A DNA stretch of 59,914 nt from NCBI GenBank assembly GCA_946534105.1, contig CAMNCG010000001.1, forward strand, positions 1 to 59,914, given 5' to 3'. A program made the position numbers and the translations under genes. The notes beneath the pieces were generated by a model. The model worked only from the letters and a program-made list of their open reading frames with translations, searched no databases and was not told the DNA's origin. The DNA comes from an uncultured Verrucomicrobiota bacterium. Lineage in GTDB: Bacteria; Verrucomicrobiota; Kiritimatiellia; RFP12; UBA3636. Shown here in pieces: positions 19,734 to 31,460 of the stretch. Numbering within the stretch: position 1 is the first letter of the stretch; every line of letters begins with the position of its first letter.

Positions 19734-20555
19734 TCAACCCCTCGCCGCCTTGATGGTTTCGTATGCCTGGTTGATCTCCGCGCTCTTCTGGTTCGCGAGC
19801 TCCACCCATTCCGGGTCGAGGTCCTTGCCCTGGATTTTGTCCGGATGGAAGGCGGCGAGTTTCCTCTTCCACGCCTTCTTGACCTCGGCGTCGGAGGCGT
19901 CGGGGGAGACGCCGAGCGTCGCGTAGGCCTCGGCTAGAGCGGCGTCGCCGGAAGACCCCTCGTCCTCGTCGCCTCCGGCGAATTCCGCAACAACGAGGTC
20001 GAACACCTCCGGCTTGAAGCCGAGGGGATCCGGAATCCCGCGGAGCAAGGCGATTTCCGAGTCGTCGAGCGCCCCGTCCGCGAGAGCCATCAAAAACAGG
20101 TGGCGATAGATCTGAAGGCGGATGTCGAAGCCGCCGCTTTCATCGCCGGGATTCAGCTCGATCGCCGCCTGAAGGATGGCATTCGCCCACTCGGCGGCAT
20201 CGTCGATGTTCTTCTTCTGTTCGTTGAAGAAATTCTGAAGGTTCCTACGAACATCGATGTCGAGCTCCAGATCATCGAAGAAGGCCTTGACGAACCCAAT
20301 TTCGGACTTATCCACCCGTCCGTCCGCCTTGGCCATCTTTGCCAGCAAGGCAACTTCGCCCAACAGCAGAATGGTTCCTGGCTCCGACTTCTCGTCCCCG
20401 AGGCCAACCAGATTCAGCGCGCTGTCAACCGTTCGTCCGGCACCGTCGATCACGCCGCCCAGCACGTCGCCAACACCATCTATGATCTCGCCGTCAAAGA
20501 CTTTTCCAAGTCCTCCGCCGACCTTCTTGAAGAAGTCTCCGAGTATGGTTCCCAT
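19734..20555 (-). CDS. djlA: DjlA-like co-chaperone (TerB-like domain plus C-terminal J domain)
   Basis: Trimmed to the ATG at 20555 (MGTILGDFF). The C-terminus LGVSPDASDAEVKKAWKRKLAAFHPDKIQGKDLDPEWVELANQKSAEINQAYETIKAA matches the DjlA J-domain pattern, including HPD. The middle part is TerB-like (AKADGRVDKSEI, ALADGALDDSEI). Confidence 0.7.
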   Translation of the reverse strand: MGTILGDFFKKVGGGLGKVFDGEIIDGVGDVLGGVIDGAGRTVDSALNLVGLGDEKSEPGTILLLGEVALLAKMAKADGRVDKSEIGFVKAFFDDLELDIDVRRNLQNFFNEQKKNIDDAAEWANAILQAAIELNPGDESGGFDIRLQIYRHLFLMALADGALDDSEIALLRGIPDPLGFKPEVFDLVVAEFAGGDEDEGSSGDAALAEAYATLGVSPDASDAEVKKAWKRKLAAFHPDKIQGKDLDPEWVELANQKSAEINQAYETIKAARG

Positions 20556-20571
20556 GGTTTTGCTATTCTTG

Positions 20572-21387
20572 TTAATTACCGATTGAGGTTGAGTTGGAAA
20601 TGCGGATGTAATCGACGAGCATTTCGTTCGGGAACTGCGAATCGTCAATTTCAAAACCAGGCCAGTTGCCGCCAACGGCGACATTCAAGATCAGGAAGAA
20701 CGGCTTGTGGAAAGCATTGGTTCCACCAGCATTGTTTTCGATGATCATCTCGTTGTACTTGAAGTCATCAACATACATGGATATGACTTTTTCGTTCCAA
20801 ACGAGCCTGTAATCATGAAACTTCGTTACGTCCAGCGGGAATCTCGCTCCATAAAAGTCCGAAGTGCTTTTCCCATGTTGCGCATGACCATTGTTGAACC
20901 AGTGACATGTCCCATGCACGACATGCTCGTCATTGACGGCCTCGATGATGTCGATCTCACCGCATGCAGGCCAGCCAACGGAATCGATGTTTTCGCCTAG
21001 CATCCAGAAGGCGGGCCAGATTCCTTTGCCAGAGGGCAAGGCAATGCGTGCTTCTACCATGCCATAGGTGAAGGAGAATTTTCCCTTCGTGACCATGCGG
21101 GCGGAGGTGTAGTCCGATCCGTTGTATGATTCATTTACGGCGCGAATATGGAGGATACCGTCCTTCACATAGGCGTTTTGGGATTGGTCGGTATAAAACT
21201 CCTTCTCGTTGTTGCCCCAGCCATTGTTCCCCGTTCCTATTTCAAAACTCCACTTCGATAAGTCAATGGCGCTACCATCGAATTCGTCATGTCACAGGTA
21301 TGGACTCTTTGAATCGGGACTTATCAACTTCTTGAGATAGTCGTATTTTTCGCGAAACAGCGCCAGAACTTCTTCACGTGTTTTCAT
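20572..21387 (-). pseudogene. GH16 (laminarinase/beta-glucanase fold) gene interrupted by an in-frame TGA
   Basis: The frame opens at the ATG at 21387 (MKTREEVLALFREKYDYLKKLISPDSKSPYL). It hits a TGA at 21292-21294. It then continues in the same frame as HDEFDGSAIDLSKWSFEIGTGNNGWGNNEKEFYT...GEIDIIE (the ExDxxE catalytic motif). There is no signal peptide. Confidence 0.6.
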
Positions 21388-21414
21388 GGTCACAAGGTGA
21401 TGCAAGTTTGCTTA

Positions 21415-22431
21415 TTAGAGGATAGGTGGTTGCCCTTTGACAAGTTTTTGTCCCCAAAGACAGCGAGCGTCATCCTTCTGCACATCGGGACTGTTCGCGA
21501 CCAACTTCGAAAGGTATGTGTCGATTGGAGGAAAGTCGGCTAGTTCAGCATCCGTCAACACCTTAATACATCCTCCAAATCCAAACATTCGGACGAAAAC
21601 TATTCCATCTCCAATCCAAAAGAAGAGTTCTCTATCGGGGAAAGGATCAATTATTGCTGGAATACTAATGGGGAAAACGTAATGCAACTTCCTTAGCGCC
21701 ACCCCACCAGAGAAGATGGCTTCTCTGAAGGATCTTGCCGAATCTGATTTCAGGATGTAGGGATATCCATACATGCAGAATGCAAGTTCATACGCGATTT
21801 TTACATATTCTTGGACGCCAGTATCATTCCAAGCGATTTTCTCTTGGTGCAACAAGGGGCGTTCGGAATGATGCGTTGCTTTTTGCAGAGCTTCGTCAGC
21901 CATTGAAGCAACGAGCTTATTCAATTTGTCAGGTGCGTCCTCCAGCTGGGGATTGAGTTTAAGTTGAACACGACGTAACTCTTTCTTAACCATTTCAAGC
22001 TGTTCTTTACGCGAATATGTAGCGGGAATTACCATCGACACACTCGTAGCATCAAGGTCTTCTTTGATTGTAACTGTGGGCAATGTCTCGGGGCTACCAT
22101 TGACGATGCGGACCTTTTCTAGGCGAGAAGTCGGATCGTCCACGGCCCATACACCGGAAAATATATTGGGACAATGCCCTTTCTTTCCTTTGAGTCCGTA
22201 AATGTGTCGGTTCAGTATGAATGGAAAAAGCGCTTGGAAATTTCCATCAACGGTTGAACCGAGTTTAGAATTACAATCTTTGCAGACAAAAGGCATTTTC
22301 AGCCTTCCTCCGATTGATTCCGGAAATACATGCTCAATGGTTAACGGCTTCTCTTTTAGACAGAAGATGCATTGTTTGTTGTAATCCACGGCGTCTGAAG
22401 CGTGGCTCTGTTGAACATGAATGTTTTCCAT
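21415..22431 (-). CDS. HNH endonuclease domain protein with an unassigned C-terminal domain of about 250 aa
   Basis: The N-terminal HNH/zinc-finger motif is CIFCLKEKPLTIEHVFPESIGG...CKDCNSKLG. I prefer the ATG at 22431 because a GGAGG sits 9 nt upstream. That start lies 1 nt after the upstream TAG stop. Confidence 0.7.
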   Translation of the reverse strand: MENIHVQQSHASDAVDYNKQCIFCLKEKPLTIEHVFPESIGGRLKMPFVCKDCNSKLGSTVDGNFQALFPFILNRHIYGLKGKKGHCPNIFSGVWAVDDPTSRLEKVRIVNGSPETLPTVTIKEDLDATSVSMVIPATYSRKEQLEMVKKELRRVQLKLNPQLEDAPDKLNKLVASMADEALQKATHHSERPLLHQEKIAWNDTGVQEYVKIAYELAFCMYGYPYILKSDSARSFREAIFSGGVALRKLHYVFPISIPAIIDPFPDRELFFWIGDGIVFVRMFGFGGCIKVLTDAELADFPPIDTYLSKLVANSPDVQKDDARCLWGQKLVKGQPPIL

Positions 22432-22432
22432 G

Positions 22433-23698
22433 CTATTTTCCCTCCGCATTTCTTTTTTTGATTATGACATTTTTCTCCAAGAGCGAAAATCCCTTTTCAT
22501 CAGTATCAAACCTGTTAATTAGTTCTCCGTTATTGCGAATTTTAATGTCGGGTTCCCGAAAGAGAATGGTTCTTTGCAATGGTCTATCTTTCGGATTGCT
22601 ATTATTTTTGCTTTCCTTAACATATTTAGCCGCTTCTAAACAAAGTTTTATGACTTCTTTGCGATATTTTTCAAGCGCCTGCAATTCAATTGTCGCGCCA
22701 AAAAGCCTTTCGCAATAGGTCACGGCTTTCCACAGCAGCCAAACGTTTGTCGAATAGGCCCAGTGAATTGATGCCTGTGTCCAGCGATAAATCCGTTGAA
22801 TTGATTGGAAGCTGACAGGACGATCCTTGAAATGAAAATTCGTTTCAAACTCTTTCTCAATTATAGACTGGAATCTTCCACTACGGATCTCAAAGAGATC
22901 AAGGGGGACAACTCCACGGAAGCCGACAATCCGCATGAACCACGATTCCAGCATTTGGCGAATGGCAAAAATCGACAGCATCTCTCTTGACGGATTGTTT
23001 GGAATGCGATTGAAGAAAGCCAGATTCTCTATGTCGCAAAACAATGGAAGCGTGAACGATTGTCTTTCTCGTTGAGATGAGGATTTACAGAATCCAGAAA
23101 TTAACCCGGTCGACGAAAGGTCCTGAACAAAGTTGCAGACTGTTTCACATGGGAATACAACACGGGAAAAGCCATACAAGTCCGGCTTGTCAATACGTTC
23201 CAGAATCCACGCCAAAAACTCCTCGCAACAGCACAACGTAGCTTGTGCGAGTTCCAAATTATTCAAATAAGGATTTTTAGCAGGGCCAAGCCTTTGCGGT
23301 TGAACATCGTGTTCTTTGTCCGTGATGTTGTCGACAACTTCGGTTGTTCGAATAGCATATGTTTTCCCGTCTGCGAGCTGAAATTGCGTTTGACTTTCCC
23401 GTCTTTCAAATTCAATGTCTGGCTCAGAAAATAATCGGTCGATAAGTGTGTCTTCATCCAGATTTGATCCGTTTTGAAGCGCGGTATGCAACAGGGTTTT
23501 CAACTTGTGAATTGTTGCCTTTAACTCATCTTTGTCCCTTTGATGAGGAGCAAACCATTCGAGTAGCGTATCGCCACAATGCAGAGAATCAACAATTGGA
23601 AGTTGAAACTGTTTGGTCGCAGATTCGGTTTTCATCGGGTGTCCTTCCTGCTTGTGAACCCAAGCCATTTGGGATCGTTTTTCCTTATTCGAAAACAC
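22433..23698 (-). CDS. hypothetical protein (no recognisable domain)
   Basis: 421-aa ORF with non-repetitive, protein-like composition and no P-loop. The track start is a GTG at 23698. An alternative ATG at 23635 (MKTESATK) has a better Shine-Dalgarno sequence (GGAAGGA). Confidence 0.6.
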   Translation of the reverse strand: MFSNKEKRSQMAWVHKQEGHPMKTESATKQFQLPIVDSLHCGDTLLEWFAPHQRDKDELKATIHKLKTLLHTALQNGSNLDEDTLIDRLFSEPDIEFERRESQTQFQLADGKTYAIRTTEVVDNITDKEHDVQPQRLGPAKNPYLNNLELAQATLCCCEEFLAWILERIDKPDLYGFSRVVFPCETVCNFVQDLSSTGLISGFCKSSSQRERQSFTLPLFCDIENLAFFNRIPNNPSREMLSIFAIRQMLESWFMRIVGFRGVVPLDLFEIRSGRFQSIIEKEFETNFHFKDRPVSFQSIQRIYRWTQASIHWAYSTNVWLLWKAVTYCERLFGATIELQALEKYRKEVIKLCLEAAKYVKESKNNSNPKDRPLQRTILFREPDIKIRNNGELINRFDTDEKGFSLLEKNVIIKKRNAEGK

Positions 23699-23699
23699 A

Positions 23700-24056
23700 T
23701 CATGAGAATCGATGCTCGATTTCCGAATGGATGTTCTTGAGAATGCGGTTTGCGAACGACTTGACTACTATGCGCCCCAAAATGTCGCCAAGAGAGAAAG
23801 GAAGAATTGAAAGTGGCGGTGCCGGGTCGGCTAGAATTAAGAACTTTCTAGTTTTAGTTTTGGATTCTACGACGAGATCGTTCCCCACTTGATAAATGGA
23901 AAATGCCAAGTCACCATTGCCTGAGGAGATAGAAAAACTGTCATCCTGCTTCATCTGTTCGCAATTGAGGCTGAAACCATGTGCTTTGCATCGCTCTATA
24001 GCGAAATCGACGCATTCCTGCAATTGTTGAGACTTCCCAGTAATGACAGTTTTCAT
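23700..24056 (-). CDS. hypothetical small protein
   Basis: 118-aa ORF in the same tight gene string. It has AT-rich codon usage like its neighbours. I recognise no family. Confidence 0.5.
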   Translation of the reverse strand: MKTVITGKSQQLQECVDFAIERCKAHGFSLNCEQMKQDDSFSISSGNGDLAFSIYQVGNDLVVESKTKTRKFLILADPAPPLSILPFSLGDILGRIVVKSFANRILKNIHSEIEHRFS

Positions 24057-24083
24057 GTTTGTTCTCTTCGATTCACCAACGGA

Positions 24084-24482
24084 CTAATCGTGAAGCATTT
24101 CGAGAAAGGCGGAAAATGATTCCGCAACAAGCATGGTTCTGTCCTGCTCGTGCAACCACAGATGAATGGCCCCGTTTTTCACGACAAAGAAATTCCCTGC
24201 TGGATCGGTGGCAAAAGGAACAAGCTTCTTGTTCGCGGAATCCAGTGGATAGAAGGCGAACACGTTCTCGACATCGCCTCGGTTAAAGGAGAGGAGAGAC
24301 TTGAATTCCTTGTCCTTTTCCAACGCAAGGTCGTAATATTTCAATGACGGGCGACCGCCATTGTTCGTTCGGATCGTGTTCTTGAGGTCTTCCGGCAGCG
24401 TAGTGCCAACCAGGGATTCGTACTCTGCAATGCTTCCCGCATCGACAAGTGGTTTGACGTATTTCCAAGTGATGACCTTCAT
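24084..24482 (-). CDS. SMI1/KNR4 (SUKH-1) family immunity protein
   Basis: 132 aa. The motifs IAEYESLVGTTLPEDLKNTIRTNNGG, FATDPAGNFFVV and AESFSAFLEML give a textbook SUKH pattern. It lies 15 nt downstream of the nuclease gene. Confidence 0.85.
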   Translation of the reverse strand: MKVITWKYVKPLVDAGSIAEYESLVGTTLPEDLKNTIRTNNGGRPSLKYYDLALEKDKEFKSLLSFNRGDVENVFAFYPLDSANKKLVPFATDPAGNFFVVKNGAIHLWLHEQDRTMLVAESFSAFLEMLHD

Positions 24483-24497
24483 CGTCCGATTCCTTTC

Positions 24498-25328
24498 CTA
24501 AACACGAAAATCGCTTCCGCCGCCCCAGATGCTCCGACCGCCAGTATGGCCCGTCAATCCGTGCACATCAGATTTGACCAGTTGCATCTTTCCAAGTTCC
24601 TCGTTATGGTGCCACGTATATCCATCCGGGGTGTCGCCGTTTCTGACTTGATCCAATTGCTCGGCTGAAAACGAGCTAGTTGAATCAGGATTCTTTCCGA
24701 TGTGTTCCTGCAACTGATGGTTGCATTCGGCAAATTGCTCCTTGTCGGATGCCTTCAACATATCTTCAGGAAGTTTCGCATCGAAGGCAGATTCAAATTT
24801 TGGGAAAACACCTGTTACTTGGTTGCCGGCCGCGTCCACAACGGTCTTTTGTTCGAACGGTACGCCAGTTATGGGATGAACATCTCCTTCCAGAGCCTGA
24901 TTTCGCGTCAGAAGATTATAATGAATTGGGTTTGTCGCGCCGGCTTCAGCGGTTGGAGTCGCTTTGATCGCCTCCCGTACGCCTAAATCAGCATTTAGCA
25001 CTACAGAATCAGCCTTAAGCATCTCATCCGGCAAAATTTTTCCAGTTTTGAGATCCATGACGGCTTGTTCAAGGGTGGAGGCATTTCCGCCTTGCGTCAC
25101 CTGAGTGGCGAAAGTCTGGACGGCATTTGCCGTGTTCACCTCAGTCGCTACGACTGTTTTTTCCGCAGTGGTAGCAGTCTGCGCCATGATTGCAGCGGCT
25201 TGACCTCCTGTCTTAGCAGCCACGGCACCAGTTTCGGCAGCCGTCTTTGCTGTCACGGCAGCGGCTTTTGCGGCGGCCGCGCCTACTTCTGCGGTAGCAG
25301 CTCTCGCCGCAGCCAATATCGGTATCAT
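24498..25328 (-). CDS. WHH-type HNH/EndoVII-fold nuclease (toxin-like) protein
   Basis: The C-terminus is GYTWHHNEELGKMQLVKSDVHGLTGHTGG, which fits the WHH clade signature. It is preceded by HPITGVPF...GVFPKF. The N-terminal part (about 100 aa) is an Ala/Thr-rich helical region. I prefer the ATG at 25328 because AAGGAG sits 7 nt upstream. That start lies 1 nt after the ATPase TAA. Confidence 0.7.
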   Translation of the reverse strand: MIPILAAARAATAEVGAAAAKAAAVTAKTAAETGAVAAKTGGQAAAIMAQTATTAEKTVVATEVNTANAVQTFATQVTQGGNASTLEQAVMDLKTGKILPDEMLKADSVVLNADLGVREAIKATPTAEAGATNPIHYNLLTRNQALEGDVHPITGVPFEQKTVVDAAGNQVTGVFPKFESAFDAKLPEDMLKASDKEQFAECNHQLQEHIGKNPDSTSSFSAEQLDQVRNGDTPDGYTWHHNEELGKMQLVKSDVHGLTGHTGGRSIWGGGSDFRV

Positions 25329-25329
25329 C

Positions 25330-28300
25330 TTACGACTCCTTTCCACATAGCGCCTGGAGAATTGCGGAAATAGCGCCAAGTGTTTCCAGCTTGGAACACC
25401 CTGGAACCTTTCCCTTTAGGCAATCAAGAACGACAATGCAAACCGCCTTCTCAAACGAGATAAGGGTATCGCCTCTGAGGTCGAGCCTCGGAACAAAGAA
25501 AGCATCAGTTGCCTTTACGATGGAGTCAATTGCCGCCGGAAGATCGTCTCTCTGAAACGCGGCCGTGATCGCCTCCCGGTCAGTTTCGGTCGCAAGAATC
25601 GCGGCGGCCGTCTGCTTCGCTTCAGAATAGAATCCAACAACTGCTTCCAACGGGCGATCATACCATGTGGGCATGACGACTCGCATGCGAAGTTCATCCG
25701 ATTTTAGTAATTTATTACGCACTTCCTTGACGCATTGCGAATCCGGAGCAAAGCCGCCCGTAGGCAAAGAACGATTCCAGAGTCTCAGAATGTCATCACG
25801 TGTCCTTGGCGCATACTCGCTAAGGTATTTCCTCGACTTTAGCAACGCATAGACGGCACCGTGCAGAAGGTGGGCTCCCATCTCGCCGCGGGCCAGCGTA
25901 ATGTTAACACGCTCGGCAATCTGTGGAAGCTCTCCCGAGAGACATTCCTCCCAAATGTGAGTCCATCGTTCTTCTTTGCCCGTTCCGGCCACGACAAGGA
26001 CAGATGAGAGGTATCGGTCTGCCAGGCGTTCCAATTCTCGCGGCGCTTTTTGCTCGATTATGTTTCGCACTTGATCAAAATGCGATGGACGGCGATCCGT
26101 TGCATTTGGGCGTTCAAGGGCGCTGAGTTTCGCATCCGAGACCCCCTGCCCGGCTGAATTGAGTCGCTTGCGGATACGGACGTGCACGGGTTCCGACAAC
26201 GAGGAGCAGTGAACAAGCGCTTCGCCCACTTTCAGCCGATTCAGGAAAGCGGATTGTTCCGGGTCAAGGCCCAAGCTTCCGCCTATTTCCTCGGCATCCT
26301 CGCGCGCTCCAAGTCTGTGTGCGATTTTGAGATTCGTATTTTTGATGGCCCCTTCGCTGAGCCGTAGCGGCAGTTGGTCGGCAATGACGATGCCAAGGCC
26401 GTAAGCGCGCACCTCGGAGAGTATGTTTTCAAAAATCTCGACCGCATGTTGTGCCGTGTTGTTCCCGACAAGCGAGTTGTTTTTCACGGACTCCCGCTTG
26501 AACACCCTGTGCGCCTCTTCGACAACAAGCAGATTCCTGAGGTTTTCGGACTCGCCTTCGCTCTCGAAATACTTGTAAATCCGAAGCATCAGGATGCCCG
26601 TGAGAAACGCCTTGCTCTCATCGTTTCCGACTTTGCGCATCTCAATTACAGTCGGACGCGAGAGGAGTTCCGCCACGTCGAAGGGCGTCTCGCTGTTGAA
26701 AAGTCGCCCGCGCGGGCCGATCCGCAACGAGTTGATTCGTGTCAGCAGCGCTCCGCGAATGTTGCTCCCATAGTCGCCCGAAAGCTTTTGTTCGTCGATT
26801 ACGGCTGCCAGGTCGTTGTAAAAACTGTCCATCGTCGGGACGGCACCGCTTGCTGGTGGGGCGCCGCTCGCGATGTCCCAGCCTGCATTCTCATAGGCGC
26901 GAACAAGTCCCTGCTCCACAAGCGCCGCCATTGGCCCTTCCATGGGAAAGGCGGAATTGAGGATTGCCCCAAGCGCATCGATATGCGAGTGAACAGTGTC
27001 GCCAGGAGACAGCTCAAACGGATTGATTCTCAGCGGAACGACCAATTCGTCCCCTGCCGTATAGACACGGATTGGCTCCCCGTCGATTTGCAGATTGCGG
27101 TATTCGCTCTTGGCAGGTTCCAACACCAAAAACGGAACTCCCGCCTGTGAAAGAATCTCGCGAATCGTCGTGCTTTTGCCCATGCCGGTAAGACCGGTCA
27201 CGAGCGTATGAGCGCGAAGGTCGGCCGTCGTGATGCCAACCTCGTTCGCGATAGCCACTTCGCGATCGCAAAGAGCGCCCAGCACGATGTCCGGCTTGTC
27301 GTAAAGCGTCTCGGGATTGACCGAATAGCGGCGCGTAGAGCGGATATCAACACCTGGATGGCTCTCTGCGGGAAGGCACATGAGCGAAGCAAATTCGCTG
27401 CTCGTCAGGATGGTGCCAATCGCCTCTCCTTCAAGTGTCTGCGGAATTGACGACACGACACCAGACCAATCATCGGAACGATTGGCAAGCGGAACGATGC
27501 GAAAAGGTTCGTGAGCGTCAAAGCGTTCCGTCAAAGCCGTCTTGAACATGGACGCCGCAAATCGGAATGTGTCATCATCCTCCGCAAGAAGAAATGCGAC
27601 ACTCTTCCATGCGCCTTCTGATAGAGCCCGTTTCCAGCGCTCCTCTTCCTCCTTCAGAGCCTCTTCGTAGGCTTCGGCAAAACGGTTCAACCGTTCAAGG
27701 GAATTTGAATACGTTTGGCTCCGTGTGCGCGTGGTGGAGTAATTGACTCCGACTGCGCCGCCGCCGGTTAGGGCAGCCGTGGCCGGATTCCAAGCTCCGC
27801 CCATAAAATTGATCGCCGAGGCAGCTGGACGGACGATTCCGGCTAGCAATCCCCATTTGGGCAATTGCGCCAAAGCACCAAATCCAGTTAATGATGTTCC
27901 AAGCGTATTCGCTACGCTCTCACCGTATTGCTTTTGAATGTTGTTCTTGATTCGGTCGTGGTTCTCCCCGACAAGGCGGCGAATCTCGTCAAGTCGATTA
28001 TTGATTTCCGCTTCCGATAGTGATGCTCCGGAGACAAGCAACGTGAAGGTCTTTCCGCGCATTCCACGCAAAAGCCGGTCAAGCGAATAAAGGGGTTCCT
28101 GCTCGTTGTCAGAAAATGCCGGGACTCCCGTGACGATACCGCCTCGCGTCATGTTCTTGACAAGTGGCGCAAGCGGGGTTTCGTCACCGAAGAGGACTCC
28201 GGGAAACGCCGCTTCCAGCGAAGGGCGATGGTGAGCGGCATCCTCGACGCCAGCATAGAGTTCCACGGCGAGCGATGTCCCGCGAACAACGAACGAGATC

Positions 28301-28596
28301 CCGTTTCTGCATCCCGCTTCCTCTTTCACCCATGACTGCATGGCTGTCATGAGTTCGTGAATGACCTGGGCATGCTCGATTCGGTTAGAGTAAAAGAGGG
28401 ATCTGATGCGGATGAACCTTCCCGTTTTGTTCACTGAGAGTTCTGTGCCATCCTCGAATGTCGAACTCCCCGGAATCTCGGACAACCAGTCCCGTCGCAG
28501 TTGCGACAAGGCCGACTGGGCTTGTTCGTTCGTCTCGCGGTAGAGCGCAAGGAACTTTTCGTCCTCGCGTGTGATAATGTCGGTCTTTTCAGCCAT
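25330..28596 (-). CDS. large HerA/FtsK-superfamily (DUF87-like) P-loop ATPase
   Basis: 1088 aa. Walker A is TGLTGMGKST (27169-27195), followed by FLVLEPAKSEY. Walker B is LLVVEEAH (26509-26532). VIADQLP...NTNLKIAHRL is also present. The N-terminal region (about 440 aa) and the C-terminal region (about 270 aa) are unassigned. Confidence 0.75.
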   Translation of the reverse strand: MAEKTDIITREDEKFLALYRETNEQAQSALSQLRRDWLSEIPGSSTFEDGTELSVNKTGRFIRIRSLFYSNRIEHAQVIHELMTAMQSWVKEEAGCRNGISFVVRGTSLAVELYAGVEDAAHHRPSLEAAFPGVLFGDETPLAPLVKNMTRGGIVTGVPAFSDNEQEPLYSLDRLLRGMRGKTFTLLVSGASLSEAEINNRLDEIRRLVGENHDRIKNNIQKQYGESVANTLGTSLTGFGALAQLPKWGLLAGIVRPAASAINFMGGAWNPATAALTGGGAVGVNYSTTRTRSQTYSNSLERLNRFAEAYEEALKEEEERWKRALSEGAWKSVAFLLAEDDDTFRFAASMFKTALTERFDAHEPFRIVPLANRSDDWSGVVSSIPQTLEGEAIGTILTSSEFASLMCLPAESHPGVDIRSTRRYSVNPETLYDKPDIVLGALCDREVAIANEVGITTADLRAHTLVTGLTGMGKSTTIREILSQAGVPFLVLEPAKSEYRNLQIDGEPIRVYTAGDELVVPLRINPFELSPGDTVHSHIDALGAILNSAFPMEGPMAALVEQGLVRAYENAGWDIASGAPPASGAVPTMDSFYNDLAAVIDEQKLSGDYGSNIRGALLTRINSLRIGPRGRLFNSETPFDVAELLSRPTVIEMRKVGNDESKAFLTGILMLRIYKYFESEGESENLRNLLVVEEAHRVFKRESVKNNSLVGNNTAQHAVEIFENILSEVRAYGLGIVIADQLPLRLSEGAIKNTNLKIAHRLGAREDAEEIGGSLGLDPEQSAFLNRLKVGEALVHCSSLSEPVHVRIRKRLNSAGQGVSDAKLSALERPNATDRRPSHFDQVRNIIEQKAPRELERLADRYLSSVLVVAGTGKEERWTHIWEECLSGELPQIAERVNITLARGEMGAHLLHGAVYALLKSRKYLSEYAPRTRDDILRLWNRSLPTGGFAPDSQCVKEVRNKLLKSDELRMRVVMPTWYDRPLEAVVGFYSEAKQTAAAILATETDREAITAAFQRDDLPAAIDSIVKATDAFFVPRLDLRGDTLISFEKAVCIVVLDCLKGKVPGCSKLETLGAISAILQALCGKES

Positions 28597-31351
28597 AGAC
28601 AGGTTCCTTTCCTGGATTCAACTCCTCCAGCGACTGAACGGATGATTCGACAAAGGCCTTCACTTCCTCGCTGAATGATTCCAGTGACTTGATCTTTTCC
28701 TCTTTATCACCTTTAGCCTTCGCCACATCGGCTAGGATCTTTTCCTCCTGCTTGTCCAGGTTATATAAGTAGGTATCAAGATTATTCCGGTATTCCGCCA
28801 CTGTTCCTTTCACGAATTCATCGACCTTAGCGGTCATTTTCGATAAAACGGAAGAATCCTCATCACCAATAATTAGTTTCGTCAACTCCGCCTTGACTTT
28901 TTCAACAATCTTCTTGCGAATGATGTTTTTCGCAAAAGGAAGGCCGATGATTACAAAAACAGCCGCCAACCCTGCGACAATCGCTATGATCGGCCCCAAA
29001 CCCAACCCCCAGAAAGGCGCCGACGACACCACCGTTGAAGCCACAGTTCCAAGACCATGTGCAGCGCACCAAGTGGCGAGCGCTCCGCTTCCCAACAAGC
29101 CTGCAAGGCCTGTGCCCGCGCTTATTGTCGAGCTAGTGACAACTCCTACCGTAAGACCTAGAACTGCGGCCAAAGCTCCCCCGGATACTCCGGCGGCGGC
29201 TGTTGCCACCATAATATTCGTATTGGCATTTTCATCGATTCCCGTATAAGGCGTAGGATTCTCTATAATTCCTTCTCCAATGCTTTCGCATTGATGTTCA
29301 AGCGTAGTGTCGTCAATTATTTCGAGTATCGGACGAAGTCTTTTAACTAGATGTTCTCCCTGTCGGCGCAATTCTCCGGCCAATTCTGTTGAGATAGAAT
29401 CCATTCGGGCTGACACTTGTTTTATTAGCCATTTTTCCAATTCCTCACCTTTGTTTGCCGTGAGGCGTTTGAACTCGTTTTTGTCAGCCAGAGCCTTTTC
29501 GAGCTTTTCCGCCACTGCGTTTGGAATTGCCCTCAGTTTGATTTTCACTTTTGACATGACACCCTTTTCGGGCCTCAACGCAGACTCCTGAAAGTCTTTT
29601 AGAGCACTTCGCGCCTCTTTTGCACTTTGCTCGCGCAGACGATGAAGTTCTCGTTGTTTTTCTGCCAGCTCCTTGTCGCTTCTGTCCGCTCTCAAGGCCG
29701 CTATCGTTGCCCTGTTGATGGTATCCATCTCTTGGCCGTAAGCTTTTACGAGACTTTCGGCCCTCTCGCAAAAAGGGAGTTCTTTGTTCTCCTCGTGAAG
29801 GTAGGATTTGATTCTTTCACGGAGTTTGTTAAACTGGCTCTGTTCGCGGAGAAATCTTATTGCGGCGTCCTTGCGTTCCTGTTCATTCCCGGCCTTCGTC
29901 CATTCGTCCGACACAAGCAACTTTGAAATGGAAAGTTTCTTGTTGTCAATAAGATCGGCAATAGTGGCCGAACCATCCGAAAGCCGATTGGCAAAAGCCT
30001 CGCAAAGAGCGGAGCTTTTCAGAAATTCCGGCTTGGGCGGAATCGGATCTCCGTCGCCACCGGCTTTGACAGAGGGGATATGTTCCTTAAGTTCGGCAAG
30101 AGCGTCGTTGATCTCGTCATTGTTCTGTTGGTCTATTTTGTTGAGAATAAAAAAGACTTTTCGTCGATAACTGTTCACTATCCGATTGCAGAGCCATTCA
30201 TCGACAGAACTTCCCGCCTTGGGCGACTCGACCACATAAAGAACGAGTTGCGTTTTGGGAATGATGTCATCGATAATGGATTCATGCCCCTTGTAAACGG
30301 AACCGGCTCCGGGTGCATCAGTCAAGGTGATTTCGCCCAGCCATTCTGGAAGATTCGGAATGCCGAGTTGCAATACGGTGCAGGTTCCATCGTTAATCCG
30401 TTTTTTGAATCTGGAAAGACCTGTTTCATGACAGCTCTGCTGATCTGCTAGTTGTTCAATCACTTGATGGAACCCTTTTGAATCGTCTGGTTCAAAAGCC
30501 ACCCCTATGCCCGGAATCGTTTGGCCGTCGCGCTCCAGATTCTCCAGAAATGTCCCGCCGGATATTTCATTCGACACTTCATCTTGAAGCGCTTTGGCCT
30601 GAGCTTTCGTAATGTCGCAGTTCGGCATGAAAACATAGAACTGTTCTGAGCGAAAGATTTCGGTAGTGACATTTGTCGTTGGCAAATCGGCCGATGGAAG
30701 ATAATCGGCGCCCATCAGCGCATTGAGCAACGTTGATTTCCCGGCGCTGAAGGCCCCGAACACTGTCACGCGATAGCGGTCGTAGCAAACGCTCCGCTTA
30801 AGCGAGTCAATGTCCCTTTCCATATCCATGACTCGGGAATCCGTGAGACCGTTGCCCGGTCGTTTGACCAAACCGCGCAATCCTTCAAGCGGTTTGATGA
30901 TTTCTCGACGTTTTGGATTGAGTGCCTTCATTTCATCGATGCTCTTTTTGGTGGTTCGTGTTTCCTTCGTTTTCTCCGTCCAAATGATGTCGCCGTTTTC
31001 GAAATGCGAAATGCGGTCATTAGCATCGCCGTCGCCATCGTACACTTCTTCGTCGGAAACGGGATAGCCGAGCCAACCCCGCTTGCCGGTTTCGTCGTAA
31101 GCACCTCCTTCGCGATACCAACGCTTGCAAATCTCGCCGTGCGTTTCATGGGGTTCGGCGTCGCCCGGACGAAGCGTTATTGCGCAACCATATCCCCATG
31201 CTCCGTCGTAGTTGCATTGCCAGCCTCCGTCCGGGGTTTTGTAGATGCCGGGCTCGATTGCGCCTTCAACGGTCGGAAAGCGCTCTTGTTTGAGCCAGTC
31301 GTATTTGGCTTGGAACTTGGTCGCGATGTCTGCTGGAATGTTGGTGTTCAT
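28589..31351 (-). CDS. bacterial dynamin-like GTPase with an LGFP-like N-terminal module and a hydrophobic paddle
   Basis: The GTPase motifs are G1 GAFSAGKST (30731-30757), G2 PTTNVTT, G3 DAPG and G4 NKID. Long heptad-rich helical regions follow. A Gly/Ala-rich hydrophobic block of about 93 aa lies at 28937-29215. I prefer the ATG at 31351 over the TTG at 31402. The gene overlaps the ATPase gene by 8 nt. Confidence 0.8.
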   Translation of the reverse strand: MNTNIPADIATKFQAKYDWLKQERFPTVEGAIEPGIYKTPDGGWQCNYDGAWGYGCAITLRPGDAEPHETHGEICKRWYREGGAYDETGKRGWLGYPVSDEEVYDGDGDANDRISHFENGDIIWTEKTKETRTTKKSIDEMKALNPKRREIIKPLEGLRGLVKRPGNGLTDSRVMDMERDIDSLKRSVCYDRYRVTVFGAFSAGKSTLLNALMGADYLPSADLPTTNVTTEIFRSEQFYVFMPNCDITKAQAKALQDEVSNEISGGTFLENLERDGQTIPGIGVAFEPDDSKGFHQVIEQLADQQSCHETGLSRFKKRINDGTCTVLQLGIPNLPEWLGEITLTDAPGAGSVYKGHESIIDDIIPKTQLVLYVVESPKAGSSVDEWLCNRIVNSYRRKVFFILNKIDQQNNDEINDALAELKEHIPSVKAGGDGDPIPPKPEFLKSSALCEAFANRLSDGSATIADLIDNKKLSISKLLVSDEWTKAGNEQERKDAAIRFLREQSQFNKLRERIKSYLHEENKELPFCERAESLVKAYGQEMDTINRATIAALRADRSDKELAEKQRELHRLREQSAKEARSALKDFQESALRPEKGVMSKVKIKLRAIPNAVAEKLEKALADKNEFKRLTANKGEELEKWLIKQVSARMDSISTELAGELRRQGEHLVKRLRPILEIIDDTTLEHQCESIGEGIIENPTPYTGIDENANTNIMVATAAAGVSGGALAAVLGLTVGVVTSSTISAGTGLAGLLGSGALATWCAAHGLGTVASTVVSSAPFWGLGLGPIIAIVAGLAAVFVIIGLPFAKNIIRKKIVEKVKAELTKLIIGDEDSSVLSKMTAKVDEFVKGTVAEYRNNLDTYLYNLDKQEEKILADVAKAKGDKEEKIKSLESFSEEVKAFVESSVQSLEELNPGKEPVYG

Positions 31352-31460
31352 GGGGGCCTGTTCTTGAATGAATGAAAAGATTGCTGTCGGCAGGAAAGCC
31401 AAACGAATACTTCAAAGACGAGGTTTTGTTCAAAAGGGAGTTTGTTGTGTGAATGGGTGG

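Follow-up and report, generated by a model that had tools for sequence, protein, structure and literature searches.

Polymorphic toxin systems with SUKH immunity proteins have been described by Zhang, Iyer & Aravind (2011; PMC3113570) and Zhang et al. (2012; PMC3482391), in whose papers HerA/FtsK ATPases are mentioned for type VII secretion systems (T7SS) and type IV secretion systems (T4SS) only, and dynamin is never mentioned. Besides, a two-gene dynamin system protects Bacillus from jumbo phages (bioRxiv 10.1101/2022.05.11.491447), and LeoA of enterotoxigenic Escherichia coli (ETEC) has been linked to enhanced toxin release, possibly via vesicles (Michie et al. 2014; PMC4159319). HerA, furthermore, is the partner of effectors in solved defence complexes (Sir2-HerA and DUF4297-HerA; PDB 8wod and 8ziq). 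Here we analysed a stretch of 59,914 nucleotides (nt), called the window, from contig CAMNCG010000001.1 of an uncultured Verrucomicrobiota bacterium, in which a predicted WHH nuclease gene and a SUKH immunity gene directly follow the genes of a dynamin-like GTPase and a HerA/VirB4-like ATPase. Full-text literature searching, with most subscription papers outside the search, found no description of a module made up of a dynamin, a HerA-like ATPase and a polymorphic toxin with its immunity protein.

We tentatively favour the reading that the WHH–SUKH pair is the exchangeable cassette of a conserved, mobile module of four to seven genes, whose toxin is handled by the ATPase and the dynamin as cargo for export or release. 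As predicted from the sequences, the module comprises an optional WYL regulator, one or two dynamin-like GTPases, a membrane anchor, an ATPase of ~1,050-1,200 amino acids (aa), a toxin and an immunity protein. The anchor appears to be a small tail-anchored protein elsewhere and, in the window, a putative transmembrane hairpin inside the dynamin.

All module genes of the window lie on the minus strand, and their positions are collected in Table 1. The dynamin stop and the ATPase start overlap by 8 nt. At the next junction (TAA-G-ATG), the ATPase stop codon at 25330-25332 is parted from the nuclease ATG at 25326-25328 by the single spacer base 25329, and the AAGGAG lies inside the 3' end of the ATPase gene, 7 nt before the toxin ATG. 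Both details agree with an earlier note made on this DNA, and the junction has the arrangement predicted for translational coupling. The nuclease open reading frame (ORF) ends at 24498 and the SUKH ATG stands at 24482, leaving the 15-nt gap that the note had also given. The nuclease, reported there as 277 aa long and ending in GHTGG, is in fact 276 aa long, and 12 further residues follow that motif (RSIWGGGSDFRV). An alternative TTG start at 25379 would lengthen the nuclease ORF, and we favour the ATG because the homologues open with MIPIL. The GC content is 0.43-0.57 across ~20,000-31,400, compared with ~0.67 on both flanks, and its low GC suggests that the cluster was acquired horizontally. 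The borders of this island yielded no tRNA, no integrase and no convincing direct repeats on the flanks, and scans for promoters and terminators gave results at or below shuffle expectation.

Table 1. Features of the module and of the adjoining genes, in positions of the 59,914-nt window
Feature	Position	Strand	Evidence or remark
Dynamin-like GTPase, 937 aa	28589..31402	-	Pfam, PADLOC, hydropathy
HerA/VirB4-like P-loop ATPase, 1088 aa	25330..28596	-	Pfam, PADLOC, NCBIfam, PDB profile, AF2, Foldseek
Shine-Dalgarno AAGGAG	25336..25341	-	Direct sequence reading
Toxin N-terminal region, residues 1-140	24909..25328	-	Homologue alignment, AF2
WHH / colicin-DNase-type HNH-EndoVII domain, residues 141-276 and stop codon	24498..24908	-	Pfam, alignment, AF2, Foldseek
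SUKH (SMI1/KNR4) immunity protein, 132 aa	24084..24482	-	Pfam
118-aa protein	23700-24056	-	No family match
421-aa protein	22433-23698	-	No family match
344-aa HNH_5 protein	21415-22449	-	Family match
198-aa GH16 fragment	20572-21168	-	Relatives L002 and L003 have a 599-aa cellulase+GH16 protein and a DUF7910 protein
TerB–DnaJ (DjlA-like) protein	19734-20684	-	Also kept in L002 and L003

We further characterized the two proteins of the pair by profile and structure searches. In Pfam, the nuclease matches Colicin-DNase (PF12639; 2e-30, residues 170-263, 105.9 bits against a cut-off of 25) and WHH (PF14414; 1.5e-15, residues 231-270, 57.1 bits against a cut-off of 25.1), and the protein encoded next to it matches SMI1_KNR4 (5e-16, 59.9 bits, cut-off 25.4) and SUKH_6 (2.5e-13, 51 bits, cut-off 27). 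Since these matches lie above the gathering thresholds, they are not due to chance. W239-H240-H241 (24606-24614), H256 and H261 are invariant among 15 homologues. Together, these data bear out the identities proposed in the earlier note, namely a WHH nuclease of the HNH/EndoVII fold and a SUKH protein of the SMI1/KNR4 type. The first three residues are predicted to be catalytic, and H256 and H261 are the putative downstream metal-binding histidines. The AlphaFold2 (AF2) model has a predicted local distance difference test (pLDDT) score of 75-96 over residues 150-260 and below 50 over residues 1-140, a part that the model suggests to be of low confidence or disordered. The top 15 Foldseek matches of the nuclease domain were all DNases of colicins E2/E7/E9 and pyocin AP41, with E values of only ~0.1-1 and probabilities of 0.9-0.95 for the first seven matches, declining to 0.44 by rank 15.

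The toxin resembles these colicins and pyocins: they appear to share the fold of the HNH DNase domain as modelled, a disordered N-terminus, a linked immunity gene, carriage on plasmids and a possible stress-induced regulator. The module toxin is, however, much shorter and has no receptor-binding coiled coil, its immunity protein is a SUKH protein rather than an Im-type one, and the lysis gene is absent, with an ATPase and a dynamin in its place.

Gene order in other bacteria indicates that the pair belongs to the upstream genes. Gene calls in the relative loci (numbered with L below) are simple ORF heuristics, and the sample of loci is biased by the ATPase search patterns and includes related contigs. 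A scan of GTDB genomes with a single ATPase sequence gave one locus, its patterns being too specific, and an alignment-based profile scan of metagenomes supplied 80 loci for the study of gene order. At least 533 ATPase relatives were confirmed by tblastn among the first 600 metagenome pattern matches, and hundreds of metagenome contigs share the arrangement dynamin(s) – (small tail-anchored protein) – ATPase – toxin – immunity gene. In 85 of 87 loci, the start of the next gene lies -35 to +30 nt from the ATPase stop (median, -4), and the gap between toxin and immunity genes has a median of 11 nt. A dynamin gene adjoins the ATPase gene in 24 of the 36 loci with full flanks, the exceptions being other ATPase subfamilies with other partners, and in all examples from cultured hosts except Exiguobacterium and Acinetobacter. 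A helix-turn-helix (HTH)-WYL regulator is encoded directly upstream in 9 of 20 diverse loci, in L006-L014 and in most plasmid examples. Frequent neighbours are Abi_2/Abi family genes, type I restriction-modification (RM) genes, McrBC-like genes, HicB and YoeB/RelB; other T4SS genes were found in none of the loci examined.

The module occurs in at least five phyla, including Bacillota, Spirochaetota, Pseudomonadota and phyla of the Planctomycetes-Verrucomicrobia-Chlamydiae (PVC) group. Close homologues of the window's WHH protein stand in the same dynamin – ATPase – WHH – SUKH order with differing flanks, and relatives in the PVC group carry LHH with SUKH, WHH with SUKH, or unknown pairs. One PVC locus (L097) consists of a minimal unit of four genes, encoding a dynamin, the ATPase and proteins of 201 and 121 aa, between housekeeping genes. 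Gut metagenomes (Firmicutes) contain WYL – dynamin – dynamin – 184-aa tail-anchored protein – ATPase – WHH – SUKH, and the toxins of the gut metagenome operons include hundreds of WHH homologues of ~200 aa; a Clostridia metagenome-assembled genome (MAG) has small membrane protein – ATPase – WHH – SUKH. Among cultured hosts, the complete module was found in Lactococcus cremoris on the conjugative dairy plasmid pF27B (L124, NZ_CP068513.1), and likewise on plasmids in E. coli TW10590, Treponema saccharophilum (pTS2) and Bacillus sp. PGP15; in Exiguobacterium acetylicum, genes for the ATPase, the toxin and SUKH are present, and a dynamin is not annotated. In the ETEC strain TW10590, the conjugative plasmid pTW10590_133 (L125, NZ_CP035852.1) carries an LHH toxin gene and a SUKH gene beside IS66. 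Among 5,426 complete E. coli genomes, TW10590 alone has the module, and no orphan copies of the immunity or toxin genes were detected in E. coli at the DNA level.

About five viral-classed IMG/VR contigs (within L106-L111) also have the full module; L111 is flanked by a type I RM methylase/specificity gene and McrBC-like genes, and L106 by two serine recombinases. In appearance, these contigs are closer to islands or mobile elements than to phage cores. We also noted sister ATPase subfamilies without dynamin (L018-L024 and L031; L043, L063, L072, L073 and L089; L015, L017, L034, L038, L074 and L092). One of them has upstream proteins of 1,233-1,330 aa and downstream proteins of 170-250 aa that share an 'ADELGI' motif, and another has ~550-aa Big_2-domain proteins downstream.

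The content of the toxin position is variable. Per-member Pfam scans of 69 non-redundant proteins encoded right after the ATPase assigned WHH to 20 members, Colicin-DNase to 19, Endonuclea_NS_2 to 7, LHH to 6, and the Pput2613 deaminase, TNT and transglutaminase core domains to 1 each, and HExxH-containing proteins were found in this position as well. A candidate new fold, the 'TWHE' toxins, was rejected, as hhalign ties these proteins to WHH with 96.5% probability. The gene after the toxin encodes SUKH in 17 cases, DUF6985 in 7, a YezG-like protein in 2 and DUF7832 in 2, with matched pairs of WHH-type toxins and DUF6985, LHH and SUKH, and NucA-type toxins and YezG. SUKH is encoded directly 3' of the nuclease gene, following a WHH or LHH gene in L001, L002-L014, L030, L095 and L099 and on plasmids of E. 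coli, Treponema, Bacillus and Exiguobacterium, and it is replaced together with the toxin in other loci.

The exchange can be followed between L027 and L030, whose DNA is 89% identical through the ATPase gene and up to ~164 nt into the toxin gene; homology is lost over the toxin C-terminus and the immunity gene and returns in the downstream dynamin gene. In the encoded proteins, the toxin N-termini are 92% identical, whereas the C-termini and the immunity proteins are unrelated. Unrelated toxin C-termini were found in 16 of 109 pairs of ATPases with at least 60% identity, and toxins from loci with related ATPases retain their N-terminus (47-92% identity) but have a replaced C-terminus. Such exchange of the C-terminus along with the immunity gene, behind an N-terminus that stays, is characteristic of polymorphic toxins. 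An additional toxin or immunity homologue is present in only a few loci (L050, L057, L067 and L072), and no arrays of orphan cassettes were seen. Because the adjacency is kept despite the changing content of the cassette, the link to the ATPase is not accidental, and the proposal of the earlier note that the pair is wired to the upstream NTPases rather than standing alone is strongly supported by the conserved order, the abutting starts and the exchange as a unit.

The same cassette also serves T7SS toxins. The WHH domain of the module (~41% identity) forms the C-terminus of a Bacillus velezensis 'T7SS effector LXG polymorphic toxin' and, on over 200 plasmids of Bacillus, of 'WXG100 family type VII secretion targets', and each of these toxin genes is followed by an SMI1/KNR4 gene. 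The occurrence of WHH–SUKH in both settings implies that the cassette joins either a T7SS trafficking domain or the short N-terminus associated with the dynamin and the ATPase. Such pairs are not confined to classical type V, VI and VII secretion contexts, since far closer relatives of the window pair adjoin the NTPases. In common with polymorphic toxins, especially the LXG/WXG toxins of T7SS, the module places C-terminal WHH, LHH, NucA, deaminase or TNT domains on a constant N-terminus, with the immunity gene (SUKH or YezG) immediately 3' and replaced together with the toxin C-terminus. As in T7SS, a HerA/FtsK-superfamily ATPase is encoded beside the toxin (compare EssC/YueA). In contrast to polymorphic toxins, the module toxin has no LXG, WXG, RHS, PAAR, filamentous or signal-peptide domain in Pfam or NCBIfam, dynamin-like GTPases are core to the module, and there is usually one cassette per locus. 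Furthermore, EssC/EccC of T7SS has FHA domains, transmembrane segments and three FtsK-like P-loops, whereas the module ATPase has one P-loop, no FHA domain and no transmembrane segment.

The part that is kept during these exchanges is the toxin N-terminus. In the window clade it consists of a MIPILAAAGAA start, an Ala/Thr-rich stretch of varying length, the motif DLKTGKxLPDE (25026-25058, minus strand; T95, G96, K97 and D101 conserved) and a variable linker, as judged from the homologue alignment. Its 140 residues contain a short conserved helix or motif and no Pfam or NCBIfam domain, and the absence of a signal peptide or known trafficking domain noticed earlier holds as far as Pfam, NCBIfam and PADLOC tell. 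Module toxins are generally 170-400 aa long and begin with a short helix (MIExxxxAxE or FKEVAEA in other lineages), followed by a disordered, compositionally biased linker with lineage-specific motifs. We propose that the toxin is coupled to the ATPase machine through residues 1-140, which would serve as its constant adaptor or recognition element. A repeated F[DN]PDK[KR][IV] was observed in toxin linkers of Firmicutes and Treponema (L006, L011, L065, L070 and L126); this motif and DLKTGKxLPDE are candidate docking motifs.

The earlier note had spoken of a GTPase/ATPase machine, and both proteins can now be placed: the ATPase is HerA/VirB4-like and the GTPase belongs to the dynamin family. The ATPase has family-specific N-terminal domains (residues 1-450), a core (~450-810) with Walker A GLTGMGKST (468-476) and Walker B VVEEAH (691-696) in a single P-loop domain, and a helical C-terminal domain (~820-1088). 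It matches DUF87 in Pfam (7.7e-06), the HerA models of PADLOC in the C-terminal half only (1e-15 to 1e-8), and HerA in PDB profile searches; matches to the NCBIfam 'serine-rich protein' (NF033849; 3.9e-26) and CedD (9.6e-26) are both far below the cut-off, and those to HerA_antiphage (32.1 bits, cut-off 800) and HerA_antiphage_2 (26.1 bits, cut-off 850) also fall short. The AF2 model (pLDDT 82) gave HerA (4d2i), VirB4/TrwK (8rtd and 4ag5) and Sir2-HerA as the top Foldseek matches, which do not separate a HerA-like (DNA) from a VirB4-like (secretion) ancestry. The hydropathy profile of the ATPase has no convincing transmembrane segment, and a role as a membrane pore in its own right was dropped for this reason. 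The closest named homologues are from MAGs of Kiritimatiellae (82% identity) and Oligosphaeraceae (39%), and, going by homologue names alone, the window probably derives from a bacterium of the PVC group. The N-terminal 450 residues of the ATPase recur in at least 188 clusters (50% identity) among 1.84 billion representatives in a single-sequence search.

Residues 225-302 of the ATPase (27691-27924, minus strand) form a disordered Gly/Ser/Thr-rich loop of very variable length among homologues, with a glycine-zipper-like hydrophobic stretch in L001, L011 and L033 and near-absent in L006; the sub-threshold 'serine-rich protein' match is probably due to this loop.

Compared with the HerA-effector complexes, the module likewise has the gene of a HerA-fold ATPase adjoining that of a toxic effector. 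The module ATPase, however, has roughly double the length, and its N- and C-terminal domains are unrelated to those of the complexes. Its effector is polymorphic and encoded downstream, with a disordered tail as its tether and an immunity protein of its own. The fold is as VirB4-like as it is HerA-like, yet the module differs from T4SS (VirB4/VirD4) in that the other components of these systems are absent from all loci examined.

The dynamin of the window matches Dynamin_N (3.5e-20) and LGFP (2.7e-07) in Pfam and has the GTPase motifs GAFSAGKST (P-loop), DAPG and NKID and a C-terminal coiled region. Hydropathy gave two strong hydrophobic segments (residues 730-762 and 791-829), which are predicted to be a membrane hairpin; it likewise indicated that dynamins of the PVC group have transmembrane hairpins and that the small proteins of other loci have tail anchors. 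Matches to the PADLOC models LeoA (6.8e-21, partial, in 3 stretches) and LeoBC (2.3e-19) are weak to moderate, and the module dynamins of Firmicutes gave 1.6e-4 or nothing against the Leo models. As in Eleos/'Dynamins' (Millman et al. 2022) and LeoABC, paired dynamin-like GTPases are found on mobile or defence islands. Unlike the two-gene Eleos, which has no ATPase, toxin or immunity gene, the module always has extra genes, and in the window it has a single dynamin with a putative transmembrane hairpin.

An LGFP-type repeat was also seen at the N-terminus of the dynamin (residues ~40-150). Such repeats are usually found in cell-wall-associated proteins of actinobacteria, and in a presumably cytoplasmic GTPase head the repeat might be a ligand or sensor domain.

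In the reading we favour, SUKH would bind and neutralise the nuclease in the producer cell. The ATPase, as a hexamer, would recognise the toxin N-terminal region and pull on the disordered tail, stripping the immunity protein off the toxin, and would pass the toxin to a membrane remodelled by the dynamin, where vesicle release or another crossing step would follow. The nuclease would then leave the cell and kill competitors without the matching immunity gene, while SUKH would protect the producer and its kin, and the toxin N-terminal region would play the role that LXG/WXG domains have in T7SS. With greater caution, we consider it possible that the module represents an unrecognised pathway of toxin export or delivery, in which the ATPase threads N-terminal tails and anchored dynamins achieve membrane crossing by budding or fusion, in monoderms as well as diderms, and which has spread on plasmids and islands. 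In favour of this reading we count the conserved and coupled gene order and the exchange of cassettes. Export would also be consistent with dedicated immunity genes, with a cassette that LXG/WXG toxins of T7SS have in common with the module, with the apparent membrane association, with the shape of the toxin (a disordered N-terminus and a colicin-like DNase domain) and with the HerA/VirB4 fold, whose superfamily powers export by T4SS and T7SS.

Several observations weigh against export. No recognisable membrane channel was found in the module, and the ATPase has no clear transmembrane segment; besides, a single export route is hard to reconcile with one and the same module in both monoderms and diderms. 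Many loci have HTH-WYL regulators directly upstream, and WYL regulators of the BrxR/CapW type are typical of phage-defence systems. Defence-related neighbours (Abi, type I RM and McrBC-like genes and toxin-antitoxin [TA] modules) are common, there is usually one toxin–immunity pair per locus, unlike the orphan arrays of contact-dependent inhibition (CDI) and Rhs systems, and the window dynamin matches the models of Eleos (LeoA/LeoBC), if only weakly to moderately.

The same points favour the main alternative, an abortive-infection system of an extended Eleos-like kind, which we regard as possible and only somewhat less likely than export; the earlier note had offered both mechanisms. Its dynamins would sense phage-induced membrane or capsid events, and within the infected cell its ATPase would pull the N-terminal tail of the nuclease and thereby release it from SUKH, so that cell and phage DNA are destroyed. 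The WYL regulators (HTH-WYL-WCX) upstream, the Abi, type I RM, McrBC-like, HicB and YoeB/RelB neighbours, the missing channel and the occurrence in both monoderms and diderms would all fit, as would a single effector per locus, and variable effectors are normal for defence systems. The module is also present on conjugative dairy plasmids of Lactococcus, and plasmids of this kind are rich in phage-resistance genes. Two-gene dynamin defence provides a precedent, with the PADLOC LeoA and LeoBC matches of the window dynamin, and so does the partnership of HerA with effectors in the solved complexes. However, the module has dedicated immunity proteins, and we know of no description of such proteins for Sir2-HerA or DUF4297-HerA. 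The module toxins are accompanied by SUKH, YezG or DUF6985 in just the way seen for secreted polymorphic toxins, and LXG/WXG toxins of T7SS use the same cassette. Furthermore, module dynamins of Firmicutes barely match the Leo models, the HerA_antiphage score of the ATPase is far from its cut-off, and no homologue of the SUKH protein, as would be expected for an anti-defence gene, was found in 50,697 phage records with one variant as the query.

Two further explanations are much weaker. A DNA-handling machine, performing either end resection like HerA-NurA or DNA export or import like CedD/TdtA, with the nuclease as partner and SUKH as regulator, would suit the facts that HerA, CedD and FtsK relatives pump DNA, that CedD is among the sub-threshold matches of the ATPase and that most effectors are nucleases. 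We consider it very improbable, because the effectors include a TNT NAD-glycohydrolase, a deaminase, a transglutaminase-like protein and HExxH proteins, unrelated nuclease folds swap along with their immunity genes, and a long disordered linker, rather than a rigid complex-forming domain, parts the nuclease from the N-terminus. An independent addiction or TA cassette that merely adjoins unrelated NTPases on a mobile island is suggested by the toxin-then-immunity order, which resembles a TA pair, by the low-GC island, by relatives on plasmids and by a 2026 lactococcal genomics paper in which 'dynamins LeoABC and a toxin-antitoxin system' are given next to each other, as separate entities, on an integrative and conjugative element (PMC13335696), yet it is most unlikely in view of the abutting or overlapping adjacency in nearly all loci and at least five phyla despite changing content, the toxin N-terminus conserved with related ATPases while the toxin domain is replaced, and the minimal four-gene insertion of L097, which moves as one unit. 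That listing suggests, as one example, that annotation pipelines split the module.

Beyond the SUKH gene, three co-directional genes follow (21415-24056), whose starts overlap the preceding stops or lie no more than 27 nt away (Table 1). L002-L004 and the P0003 contig at NCBI also have these three genes, which are absent from L005; they may be a separate conflict module or a lineage-specific add-on. Comparison of the GH16 fragment with the 599-aa proteins of the relatives implies that a deletion occurred here.

To our knowledge, the functions of bacterial dynamins are largely unsettled. In the module, bacterial dynamins are firmly linked, at the level of the genes, with an ATPase and with a toxin–immunity cassette that can be swapped, which gives them a concrete output to follow: where the toxin goes and who dies. 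L. cremoris with pF27B and E. coli TW10590 with pTW10590_133 are tractable hosts for this. If the module is an abortive-infection system, the annotation of 'Eleos/dynamin' matches would change, and it would be, as far as we know, the first defence system with immunity-coupled polymorphic toxins released by a HerA-type motor. If the export reading is true, the module would be a new route of secretion or delivery in gut Firmicutes, spirochaetes and members of the PVC group, encoded also by dairy plasmids of lactococci and by a plasmid of ETEC. It would then provide a cargo-linked function for dynamins and a new trafficking class of polymorphic toxins, with a bearing on competition in microbiomes and on the ecology of starter cultures.

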